From Curvularia clavata (lineage: Eukaryota): a DNA stretch of 64,000 nucleotides. The stretch spans positions 4,402,001-4,466,000 of the forward strand of contig CP089275.1 in the NCBI GenBank assembly GCA_023920165.1. The letters are read 5' to 3'. This document shows, piece after piece, positions 5,056 to 7,832 of the stretch. The translations under genes were made by a program, and so were the position numbers. Below the pieces are notes generated by a model. It was given only the letters and a program-made list of their open reading frames with translations, searched no databases and was not told the DNA's origin. Numbering within the stretch: position 1 is the first letter of the stretch; the number at the start of each line of letters is the position of its first letter.

Positions 5056-5443
5056 GGCGTTGTGGTGCGGTTGCGCACAGGATGTTGTGCATGAGCACGA
5101 ACTTTTGGCAAACCGCTCGCGTGGGGTTGATTAGCGGGGTCAAACTGCAACTCATCCCATTGGCGCACCGCATCTGCAGGAACAGCAGACCGCGGCAATC
5201 TTTTTTCAACATGGATGCCCTATGCTCGGTCTATCTCACGCGTTATGCAAGCGAGGGCGAGCTATGGCTATACAAATTGCAGACGGTCCTGCTGCTATCG
5301 AAAATTGGTACATGCTCAGGAGTCACGCAAAACCTCAAAAAGTGGCAGCAGCATGCGTTGAACAGAGTTTCTTTTTGTTATTCTAGTCTAGCATAGCATT
5401 CGTAAAATCATAATCCTCATCGACCTGATGCTCGGGGTGCTGT

Positions 5444-6640
5444 TTATAATGCCGCCCACTCAACGGAGAACGCCCTCACGGGCTCCTTCTCATCCGCATC
5501 AATCTCTGGATCTTCGCCACCGACCATGTAGGCCTTCTTGGTTCCTGTACCAAGGCGTCCGCCACCAACAATGTCCAGAAGCTCAAACTTCTGGTCCCAG
5601 CCCAAACCCGTCGCAGCGAAGTGACTATGGTATCGGAGTGGATCGTCAGGGTACACATTGTAGTGGCAGCCAAAGCGCAGACCAGGCATGGCGTAGTAGC
5701 CTTTGGAGTGCAGGTAGCGGAACAGTGGGTAGCTGTCCGGCACCTTAGGTGGAGGGGCCGCAGTCTCTTTGGCGGGAGCTGCGAGAGGGGGATAAGAGGT
5801 TGTGGGTGTAACATAGTGCTTTTGACCCGCAACCCCCTTGACCGTACTGCTCTTCGTGGAGGGTTCTGGCGAAGGAGCAGGCACCGGCTCGAAGAGAGAC
5901 TCTTCGGGTGCGGTAACAGGGACAGGCGCAGATAAGGGAGCGTCAATCTTTGGTTGCTTGACCTGCACCCACGACTCTGAGAAGCTTGATCCCTTCATAA
6001 TGAATCCAAGACCGGAATTCGCTACATCGGAACCATTGGCTTCAGAGCTAGCGGGACTGGAGCTGGCAATAGGACTGGGAATCGAATCGACCTTGGCGGG
6101 TTTCACCACCGCCGGCGAGTCGGAAAAGTTCGATCCCTTCATGATAAAGCCCAAACCAGAGTCTGAGAGACTCGAGGCATCCACCTTGAGTGTCTGTTCT
6201 GATGTCGAGCTCGCAGCAAGATGACCTTGATCTATCTTCAAACCCTTCTCACGAAGGGCCTTTTCCTTTCTCAGCTCAGCAGCCTCCCTCTGTTGCTTGG
6301 CCACTTCCTCTCCTCTCTTGTCCATCTCTGCCAGGTACTTGAGTCTGTCTTCCCTGCTCATCTCCGCAAAGTTTTTCTGATGAAACTGCGCATCATCCAC
6401 GATAAACGCAGCGCCTTTATCGACGAGTACCCGAGCCTCTTCCGGCATGAGTTCCAGAGGTATACCCTGCTGAACGTTTTGCTGACTGAGATTCGGGAGC
6501 GTGCCCACCAGGAGCCCGCAGATGTTGTGCGCGCGACGGCAGTGCGCAACCACGTCCGCATCAAAGAGGAGGTAGCGACTGCCGACAAGCGAGATGGGAA
6601 ATGGTTCCTTGACTGGTTTAGGAGCTGGCGCTGGCGCCAT
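5444..6640 (-). CDS. SEN34: tRNA-splicing endonuclease catalytic subunit Sen34
   Basis: N-terminal HNICGLLVGTLP...GIPLELMPEEA. C-terminal endonuclease motifs GLRFGCHYNVYPDDPLRYHSHF and GRLGTGTKK carry the Y/H/K catalytic triad. ATG 6640 (MAPAPAPK). Confidence 0.93.
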   Translation of the reverse strand: MAPAPAPKPVKEPFPISLVGSRYLLFDADVVAHCRRAHNICGLLVGTLPNLSQQNVQQGIPLELMPEEARVLVDKGAAFIVDDAQFHQKNFAEMSREDRLKYLAEMDKRGEEVAKQQREAAELRKEKALREKGLKIDQGHLAASSTSEQTLKVDASSLSDSGLGFIMKGSNFSDSPAVVKPAKVDSIPSPIASSSPASSEANGSDVANSGLGFIMKGSSFSESWVQVKQPKIDAPLSAPVPVTAPEESLFEPVPAPSPEPSTKSSTVKGVAGQKHYVTPTTSYPPLAAPAKETAAPPPKVPDSYPLFRYLHSKGYYAMPGLRFGCHYNVYPDDPLRYHSHFAATGLGWDQKFELLDIVGGGRLGTGTKKAYMVGGEDPEIDADEKEPVRAFSVEWAAL

Positions 6641-6648
6641 GGTGTGTT

Positions 6649-6849
6649 CTGAAGTAAGGCGAAGGTTAGCTTCATATAACGCAATGTAGCGGTGAGGCAA
6701 GATGCTGAGTTGGCTAGAGGATCAGAGTGTGAATACAATATTGGTTCACCATGGTCCCATGTTGTGGGAGTCAGGGGATTGACAGATTATTGGGTATTCA
6801 TCATATGGGCTTACGCGGCGAGAGAGAAGAGGAAGAAGATTTTGCTTAC
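6649..6849 (-). other. 5'-UTR intron of SEN34 (snoRNA host intron)
   Basis: Donor CAG|GTAAGC at 6849, with an alternative GTAAGC at 6814. Branch point GCTAAC ~6670-6665. Acceptor TTCAG ends at 6649, 8 nt before the SEN34 ATG. Confidence 0.75.
6718..6808 (-). ncRNA. Intronic dual-guide box C/D snoRNA
   Basis: On the minus strand in order: C box ATGATGA (6804-6798), guide AATCTGTCAATCC (6788-6776), D' CTGA (6774-6771), C' ATGGTGA (6752-6746), guide TTGTATTCACACT (6738-6726), D CTGA (6725-6722). The guides are complementary to conserved rRNA segments GGATTGACAGATT (18S) and AGTGTGAATACAA (25/28S), recalled from memory. Confidence 0.88.
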
Positions 6850-6852
6850 CTG

Positions 6853-6870
6853 TCACTTGTGAGGTTTCAT
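6853..6870 (-). promoter_or_regulatory. uORF MKPHK* in the non-coding first exon of the SEN34/snoRNA transcript
   Basis: ATG AAA CCT CAC AAG TGA is followed directly by CAG|GTAAGC. The upstream pyrimidine tract CTCTTCTCTTCTCCTC may mark the start region. Confidence 0.45.
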
Positions 6871-7022
6871 CGTGGAAAGTTCCTGAGGAGAAGAGAAGAG
6901 TTAAAGGTAAAGCTCGACTTTTCACCAGCCTCGCTTAACTAGCGCGACAAGGGCAAGGACCCCCGCTACACCAGAGGCGGACGCGACGAGCTGCCACAAC
7001 AGATCAAGACCGCGGCAGCAAC

Positions 7023-7427
7023 ATGGCACCAACGTATTTTCCGGGCTCGACCAATGGCCAGGAGGCAGCGCCGCCCAAGACATACTACGAACAGCAGCGT
7101 GAGATGCTGGTGACGGAGATTGCTCAAGTGCGTTCACTCTTGTGGCCTGCACACCGACATTGTGGCCCGCGAATGTCGCTGCAACAACCTAGCGCAGCGT
7201 GCTAACCATGGTCGCAGAGCCTAGAGATTGTCTTACAGAACATCAACAAACTCAACCGCTCGCTTGAAGAAGTCACAGCAGTCGGCAACGAATTTGCGCC
7301 CGTTGAGTCGCTGTGGAGTCACTTTGAGAACGTCATGGCCAAGGATCCAAACGAGCAACATGAAAGTACGCAGGAGGGGACTACTGAGCACGAAGGCGAG
7401 ACAGAAGTACCTGAGGAGAGGAAGTGA
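7023..7427 (+). CDS. DAD1: DASH/Dam1 complex subunit Dad1 (104 aa)
   Basis: Exon 1 7023-7127 (...[15 protein letters not shown]), intron 7128-7217 (GTGCGT...GCTAAC...CAG), exon 2 7218-7427 ([40 protein letters not shown]). This matches the Dad1 signature. Confidence 0.92.
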
Positions 7428-7832
7428 AAAGCGTATAGAGCATATAAACAGAACAGGGCTCAACGGAAACATGATGTAATGATACCCCTGAGCAAATCAC
7501 TAGTAAAATGTATGGGGTAGGATTGGAAACGGCACACAGTTTCAAAAAAAAAAAAAAGTCCTGCGCTTCATTTACTTCTCCGGCGCAGGCAAAGCCAAGA
7601 AAACAAGTTTCGCTATGCGCTCATACTAAATACCGAATACAGATACAAGAAAAAGGAAAATGCAGATGTAGGCGTTTTGGACTCGCTATGCCCATTGCCA
7701 TGCCAGAGAAAACTCGTCAGGCCCCTAATTACGCGGCAGTAAGAGTCATGCCGGGACTGTGACGGAGGGTGAGCAGCGTGTGGTCATTAAAACATATTGA
7801 TCGTGTCGTCCAGCGTCGTCGTCATATGGAGT

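Follow-up and report, generated by a model that had tools for sequence, protein, structure and literature searches.

Does the short intron that precedes the start codon of SEN34, a gene of the tRNA-splicing endonuclease, give rise to a box C/D snoRNA, and if so, which rRNA nucleotides would this RNA modify? For the 64-kb stretch of Curvularia clavata DNA analysed here (hereafter, the window), a reading of the letters alone had proposed that a dual-guide box C/D snoRNA resides within the spliced SEN34 5'-UTR intron, and this proposal is supported by the boxes themselves, by RNA contigs that carry the splice junction, by the PF01974 domain of the downstream product and by both predictions made with the D+5 rule. 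We consider it highly probable that the intron encodes a box C/D methylation guide, in which the D' guide would address the counterpart of Neurospora U1227 in 18S rRNA, and the D guide that of yeast U2731 in large subunit (LSU) rRNA. The features on which this conclusion is built are collected in Table 1.

Table 1. Features of the SEN34 snoRNA locus in window coordinates. Identities are mean pairwise values among the four dual-guide lineages of the five-lineage alignment described in the text; those of the C box and the D' guide arise partly by construction, both having been part of the search pattern.
Feature	Position	Strand	Mean pairwise identity	Remarks
SEN34 coding sequence	5444..6640	-		398 aa, uninterrupted ORF; start codon at 6640
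SEN34 5'-UTR intron	6649..6849	-		201 nt; GT-AG; from spliced contigs and sequence
Intron flank 3' of the snoRNA			0.43	
Box C/D snoRNA gene	6717..6810	-		approximate ends; C start to D end 6804-6722, 83 nt
D box	6722..6725	-	1.0	CTGA, from sequence; invariant in 5/5 lineages, outside the search pattern
D guide	6726..6739	-	0.89	ATTGTATTCACACT, 14-nt element; predicted to pair with LSU rRNA; register from Nc CD6 and Nc CD49 duplexes
C' box	6746..6752	-	0.93	ATGGTGA, from sequence; not in the search pattern
Internal D'-C' hairpin	6755..6769	-		5 bp TCCCA/TGGGA, 5-nt loop; from folds
D'-C' loop			0.44	
D' box	6771..6774	-		CTGA, from sequence
D' guide	6775..6788	-	1.0	AATCTGTCAATCCC, 14-nt element; predicted to pair with 18S GGAUUGACAGAUUG; same as Nc CD44 guide and SNORD110 consensus
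C box	6798..6804	-	1.0	ATGATGA, from sequence; invariant in the five-lineage alignment, though the search selected for it
Intron flank 5' of the snoRNA			0.31	
SEN34 exon 1, non-coding 5' UTR	6850..6873	-		reaches at least 6873; RNA contig ends at 6873 (X12) and 6870 (X14)
Upstream ORF	6853..6870	-		ATGAAACCTCACAAGTGA (MKPHK*), from sequence; 3-nt gap to the 5' splice site
DAD1 (DASH complex subunit)	7023..7427	+		exon 1 7023-7127, intron 7128-7217, exon 2 from 7218

The identity of the host gene is clear. The Sen34 product matches the Pfam tRNA-intron endonuclease catalytic domain (PF01974, 50.8 bits), and its top matches in the PDB are all Sen34 subunits (E 1.6e-21). Upstream of the coding sequence, the minus strand presents a GTAAGC donor, a CTAAC branch sequence (6669-6665) and the AG of the acceptor. 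With exon 2 beginning at 6648 and the ATG at 6640, the distance from acceptor to start codon is 8 nt, exactly as the letters alone had indicated. Evidence on splicing comes from assembled contigs of four public RNA runs, aligned over positions 5300-7700, with contig parts without cover excluded. In contigs of two of these runs (X14, recorded as a metatranscriptome, and X12, which belongs to a different study), position 6648 is joined to 6850, skipping 201 nt with CT..AC borders on the plus strand that correspond to GT..AG on the minus strand; the exon 1 side of the two junction contigs comprises 21 and 24 letters, which is below the 31-letter bridging rule. Of the two junctions proposed at the outset, 6849/6649 is the one seen in these contigs, and the alternative donor at 6814 is not used there. 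The latter is part of a second GTAAGC (6814-6809, minus strand) located directly 5' of the C box, in place of which the spliced contigs employ 6849.

The intron is also found retained, namely, in contigs of X6 (5357-6842) and X5 (6627-6862; 236 nt, depth 2.1), a state that could result from abundant snoRNA or precursor reads, or from inefficient splicing. The neighbouring gene DAD1 (Pfam PF08649, 64.5 bits), which is divergent from SEN34, shows its joint (7127 to 7218, GT..AG) in all four runs, so the runs contain RNA; in X6 and X5, the SEN34 snoRNA intron is unspliced while the adjacent DAD1 intron is spliced. A mechanical list of open reading frames includes a TTG-started frame that extends from 6700, within the intron, across the acceptor and into Sen34, which confirms the suspicion that such a list misreads this region as an N-terminal extension of the protein. 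The corrected SEN34 gene model for this species and its relatives consists of a non-coding exon 1, a 5'-UTR intron and a start codon at 6640.

Within this intron, all four boxes lie at the positions at which they had been read, in the order C-D'-C'-D and with the canonical spacing that characterizes the box C/D class, covering 83 nt from C to D, close to the ~85 nt of the first estimate. Directly upstream of both D and D', there are antisense elements of at least 10 nt that are complementary to rRNA and position the target opposite nucleotide 5, as is required of guides of this class. When both strands of the 64-kb window were scanned for boxes only, 30 RTGATGA sites were recovered, seven of which are followed by CTGA 60-120 nt later, and the sole four-box candidate in the window is the one in the SEN34 intron. 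The chance that a fixed 13-mer matches the ~5.4 kb of rRNA is ~8e-5, and for two 13-mers it decreases to ~6e-9. A terminal stem of the kind that, in this class, brings the C and D boxes together in a k-turn context is not clearly seen in the copy of the window, and the consensus fold reports none; the intron as a whole folds no better than shuffled sequences (z -0.52). Flanking complementarity at the C and D ends is present in two of the related loci described below, L046 (ATGCTT/AAGCAT) and L069 (TTTTC/GAAAA).

The placement of the snoRNA within the intron is constant between lineages. The D box is separated from the 3' splice site by 73 nt in the window and by 71-77 nt in four other lineages (the 71 nt of L046 was counted by hand and the remaining values, 72-77 nt, by script), and from the branch A by 56-61 nt across the five lineages. 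Splicing-dependent intronic snoRNAs are said to function best with ~70-80 nt between them and the 3' splice site downstream, an optimum reportedly established by Hirose and Steitz in 2001. The SEN34 intron, with one snoRNA per spliced intron located ~70-80 nt from the 3' splice site, displays the arrangement by which splicing-dependent intron-encoded snoRNAs are recognized. On the opposite side, the 5' splice site is 45 nt away from the C box, the modal distance in Neurospora being 41-60 nt (PMC2780460).

The 18S guide can be assigned to a known family. We judged the rRNA pairing against published Neurospora duplexes. The D' guide forms 13 base pairs plus one G-U with the 18S segment GGAUUGACAGAUUG, such that A6779, the nucleotide at +5, stands opposite the first U of GGAUUG. 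The same duplex has been published for Nc CD44 (EU780967), an 85-nt intronic snoRNA that was detected by northern blot and RT and the D' guide of which pairs with 18S GGAUUGACAGAUUGA to specify Um1227 (Liu et al. 2009, PMC2780460); the site GGA[U]UGACAG, anticipated for the window by the D+5 rule, is therefore reproduced by that duplex. Listed homologues of Nc CD44 are snR82 in S. pombe, snoR14 in Arabidopsis and HBII-55 in human, with none in S. cerevisiae (PMC2780460 Table 1). In human, SNORD110 resides in NOP56 and has 18S U1288 as its target, according to the tabulated data of PMC5025248 (Table 2). The yeast modification table contains no 18S methylation at the SNORD110-type site (PMC5199042 Table 2), and no snoRNA with this 18S target is reported in the screen of A. 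fumigatus (PMC2377427 Table 1).

The search of Rfam, put forward at the outset as a check, returned no match at the gathering score anywhere in the window. The sole sub-threshold match was SNORD110, which scored 22.9 bits where 64 are needed for gathering (E 0.26 when 4 kb were searched and 0.0085 when 131 nt were searched), and the 3' half of the snoRNA had no match at E up to 10 in the 131-nt search. Nevertheless, the D' guide and D' box of the window are identical to the Rfam consensus of SNORD110 (RF00610, HBII-55). Because the SNORD110 score is under gathering, we group the window RNA with the fungal Nc CD44 by guide identity and not by membership in RF00610. Judged by its sequence, the D' guide is a member of the SNORD110/HBII-55/snoR14/snR82 (C/D)/Nc CD44 guide family, with the 18S U1288/U1227-equivalent uridine as its predicted target. 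Accordingly, the initial idea that the guide pairing might be specific to filamentous fungi has to be abandoned with respect to the 18S guide, which is pan-eukaryotic (SNORD110, HBII-55, snoR14 and Nc CD44). Assignment of the D' guide to snR55/U33 (yeast 18S Um1269) was considered and rejected, given that the guide of Nc CD34, the snR55 of Neurospora, differs and that Neurospora Um1265 lies 38 nt downstream.

The resemblance to Nc CD44 goes beyond the guide: both RNAs are intron-encoded and ~85 nt long, the D' guide together with its box (AAUCUGUCAAUCCCCUGA) is identical, and the 18S-Um1227 target and the register of pairing are common to the two. By contrast, Nc CD44 has a D guide of its own, predicted for 26S-Cm776, and outside the boxes and the D' guide, its sequence bears no relation to that of the window. 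The accessible portions of the text and supplements of PMC2780460 give no host gene for Nc CD44. Human SNORD110 shares its D' antisense element and its D' box with the window RNA, but is hosted in NOP56 rather than in SEN34, whereas the window RNA adds a second, LSU-directed guide.

For this second guide, the local 26S context (GAUUUUCAGUGUGAAUA) and its numbering are fixed by two published Neurospora duplexes taken together, namely, that of Nc CD49, the D guide of which pairs with 26S GAUUUUCAGUGU to specify Um2682 (the snR67 site, yeast U2724), and that of Nc CD6, the D' guide of which pairs with 26S CAGUGUGAAUA to specify Um2687 (the snR51 site, yeast U2729; PMC2780460 Additional file 4). 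Set against this Neurospora context, the D guide pairs free of mismatches from the nucleotide adjoining the D box onwards, and A6730 (+5) faces U2689, the equivalent of yeast U2731, which lies 3' of both known sites, by 2 nt in the case of snR51 and by 7 nt in that of snR67. Of the 13 LSU pairs, ten are confirmed from the published Neurospora 26S duplexes, and the last three are based on the rRNA segment as given in the sequence-only reading. By the D+5 rule, the D guide predicts an LSU 2'-O-methyluridine at the yeast-equivalent position U2731, the same site, AGUG[U]GAAUAC, that the sequence-only reading had derived. That reading had also placed the site near the snR67/snR51 target region; the proximity is borne out, at 7 nt and 2 nt, respectively, but equivalence with either site is not. 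Indeed, identity of the D guide with snR51/U41 or with snR67 was rejected on the grounds that its +5 position falls on Neurospora U2689 and not on Um2687 or Um2682. An alternative placement of U2724/U2729 some 20 nt downstream of the D-guide target conflicts with the duplexes of Nc CD6 and Nc CD49 and was rejected.

Similarly to snR51, Nc CD6 and human U41, the D guide pairs with the LSU segment that contains CAGUGUGAAUA, and the core UAUUCACAC is common to the D' guide of Nc CD6. However, the register in the window is shifted by 2 nt, which brings +5 onto the next uridine, Neurospora U2689, and these RNAs represent another snoRNA family: in the window, the guide is located at D rather than at D' and is not accompanied by an 18S A100-type guide. 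Methylation at the U2731-equivalent position is absent from the yeast modification table (PMC5199042 Table 2), the corresponding target is absent from the snoRNA target tables of Neurospora (PMC2780460) and A. fumigatus (PMC2377427 Table 1), and a full-text literature search for methylation at U2731/U4278 found nothing.

Changes of this kind have precedents among fungi. As far as the main text of ‘The fungal snoRNAome’ goes (Canzler et al. 2018, PMC5824354), second guides have been gained and lost among fungal snoRNAs, and the 25S-2724 target is served by three snoRNA families in different fungal lineages; because this target switches between three families, guide turnover on this LSU segment counts, on the strength of that text, as documented, and the turnover described there is of the same kind as that seen in the family of the window RNA. 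The same main text includes neither this guide family, nor the +2-position target, nor SEN34, and its supplementary tables may list the family and its targets for Dothideomycetes. If true, the LSU site would represent a further case of fungal snoRNA guide turnover.

To place the locus among its relatives, we scanned metagenome contigs with a pattern consisting of the C-box hexamer, the D' guide and the D' box, which yielded 93 loci (L001-L093) with the D' guide, ranging from marine algae to fungi. The D' guide is invariant over these 93 loci, as the search pattern selected for it, whereas the D guides are lineage-specific, with 21 different 20-mers across the 89 of the 93 loci in which a terminal D box was found. 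A single D guide ending with GGTGCCCTTCCA before CTGA is carried by 58 of the 93 loci, mostly on marine contigs, and several other metagenome loci have D guides of the CCTCTAAGAAG type. The Neurospora-type D guide of Nc CD44 occurs in none of the 93.

The D guide of the window, by contrast, recurs in eight of these loci, which represent three lineages (L051/L063, L039/L056 and L053/L062/L069/L086). All eight dual-guide loci are located directly 5' of a Sen34 homologue that, depending on the lineage, is 76%, 68% or 55% identical to the window Sen34 (tblastn). A ninth SEN34-linked locus, L046, encodes a Sen34 with 46-54% identity and carries a different D guide. Thus, as judged from these contigs, the SEN34 host is not peculiar to the window genome, but recurs in four other lineages.

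We aligned the window with the three dual-guide lineages and L046, and calculated identities as means of the pairwise values among the four dual-guide lineages (Table 1). Boxes and guides are 89-100% conserved as opposed to 31-43% for the intron flanks, which is the kind of excess in related species that the sequence-only reading had called for, and the host and the position within the intron are conserved alongside the guides, the boxes and the hairpin. In L069, the most distant of the dual-guide lineages, positions 1 and 13 of the D guide have changed, with positions 2-12 and the register kept; changes confined to the edges in this way are what a constraint imposed by the rRNA duplex would be expected to leave. 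The D'-C' stem covaries, being kept with other sequences elsewhere (CCCCA/TGGGG, CCACC/GGTGG, CTC/GAG and CCAG/CTGG).

Against this background, the notion that the resemblance is accidental, the 5'-UTR intron being an ordinary one from which no snoRNA is made, appears scarcely credible. It would sit well with the negative outcome of Rfam at the gathering score, with the missing obvious terminal stem and with RNA evidence in the form of contigs, in which a mature ~90-nt RNA and its ends would not be visible, but it would require two rRNA 13-mers to have arisen at the right positions among four boxes, with the joint probability of ~6e-9 applying per candidate, and would have to accommodate the selective conservation of boxes, guides and hairpin in four other lineages as well as the identity of the D' guide with that of Nc CD44, a snoRNA detected experimentally by northern blot and RT. 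A genuine snoRNA could, in principle, also be driven by a promoter of its own or stem from a non-coding isoform instead of the intron of the SEN34 pre-mRNA, a scenario to which the intron-retained contigs of X6 (5357-6842) and X5 (6627-6862) and the second GTAAGC (6814-6809), which closely precedes the C box, lend some substance. Yet the spliced form takes 6849 as its donor, the gap of 45 nt between this donor and the C box offers little room for a promoter, and the distance to the branch point and the 3' splice site (71-77 nt) is nearly constant in five lineages, as in splicing-dependent snoRNAs; we regard such an independent origin as very improbable.

The alternative that concerns the D guide is narrower, in that the snoRNA and its 18S guide would be functional, but the D guide would not methylate the uridine at +5, engaging instead in non-catalytic or chaperone pairing, acting redundantly at the snR51 site or recognizing some other RNA. 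Methylation at the U2731-equivalent position figures neither in the yeast, Neurospora and A. fumigatus tables cited above nor in any full-text literature match; second guides vary by lineage, as illustrated by the 21 20-mers in 89 of the 93 loci, and the D guide of Nc CD44, directed at 26S-Cm776, is a different one. What speaks for methylation is that guide positions 2-12 and the register relative to the D box have been kept at 55% Sen34 identity, with intron flanks at 31-43%, and that the duplex runs without interruption up to the D box, as in canonical guides. On balance, a D guide that does not methylate its +5 uridine is unlikely.

Under the preferred reading, that of an intron-encoded methylation guide with two rRNA targets, we infer the processing route, the assembly of the snoRNP and both methylations as follows. 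Box C/D snoRNAs, as a class, are stable nucleolar RNAs of 70-120 nt to which fibrillarin/Nop1, Nop56, Nop58 and Snu13 bind. Pol II would transcribe SEN34, and the snoRNP proteins would assemble on the C/D and C'/D' boxes of the intron; the spliced lariat would then be debranched and trimmed by exonucleases, with trimming halting at the snoRNP. The D' guide would direct 2'-O-methylation of the 18S uridine that is targeted by Nc CD44, snR82, snoR14 and HBII-55/SNORD110, whereas the D guide, apparently a lineage-specific addition, would direct methylation of the LSU U2731-equivalent by the D+5 rule. The initial suggestion that the snoRNA is co-produced with SEN34 from one transcript is physically true by virtue of the gene structure, any functional coupling of the two being hypothetical. 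A more elaborate scheme would combine the upstream ORF (uORF) of exon 1, the snoRNA intron and the start codon 8 nt past the acceptor into a device that ties Sen34 output to snoRNP assembly or ribosome biogenesis, with the D guide also installing, in a clade of filamentous ascomycetes, an uncatalogued LSU Um at a distance of 2 nt from the snR51 site; we deem this scheme quite unlikely.

Much of what is found at this locus is already known, including the guide family and the intronic hosting, which is the rule in filamentous fungi: in Neurospora, 45 of the 55 C/D snoRNAs are intron-encoded (PMC2780460). SEN34 as a conserved host and the predicted LSU site appear to be new, both being increments of a kind described for fungal snoRNAs. 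In a full-text literature search, in which relevance was assessed by title and abstract, we found no paper that presents SEN34 or the tRNA-splicing endonuclease as a snoRNA host, in agreement with the sequence-only reading, which knew of no such host. What is gained for this fungus and its relatives is a snoRNA gene that had not been annotated, along with two predicted rRNA ribose methylations without a counterpart in S. cerevisiae, that is, the SNORD110-type 18S site and the LSU uridine beside the snR51 and snR67 sites. The finding leaves the snoRNA mechanism, as understood, unchanged. From a practical standpoint, the association with SEN34 has been held down to ~50% Sen34 identity and can be used as a synteny anchor for finding the snoRNA in other ascomycetes.

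Several minor observations pertain to the region immediately upstream of the intron. The uORF in exon 1, ATGAAACCNCACAAGTGA (MKPHK*), has equivalents in L063, L039 and L069, with a gap of 2-3 nt between its end and the 5' splice site, and survives in four of the five SEN34-linked lineages, with one synonymous change of the Pro codon and one deletion of a whole codon. The ~25 nt upstream of the uORF are likewise conserved, and conservation around the uORF may reflect constraint on the core promoter or the start site rather than uORF-specific constraint. In L046 (L046:617-843), which is the SEN34-linked lineage furthest from the window, the exon 1 ATG is directly followed by the intron (ATG, then GTATGT) and, once spliced, is in frame with the Sen34 homology, with the exon 2 ATG being out of frame. 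Because the exon 1 ATG of L046 enters the Sen34 frame after splicing, the uORF ATG of the window may be the remnant of what was the start codon in an ancestor. Finally, in X12, the contig ends of DAD1 and SEN34 are 14 nt apart (6887 and 6873), and the head-to-head arrangement of the two genes, with DAD1 upstream of the snoRNA, is found in six of the 93 loci, which belong to three lineages.
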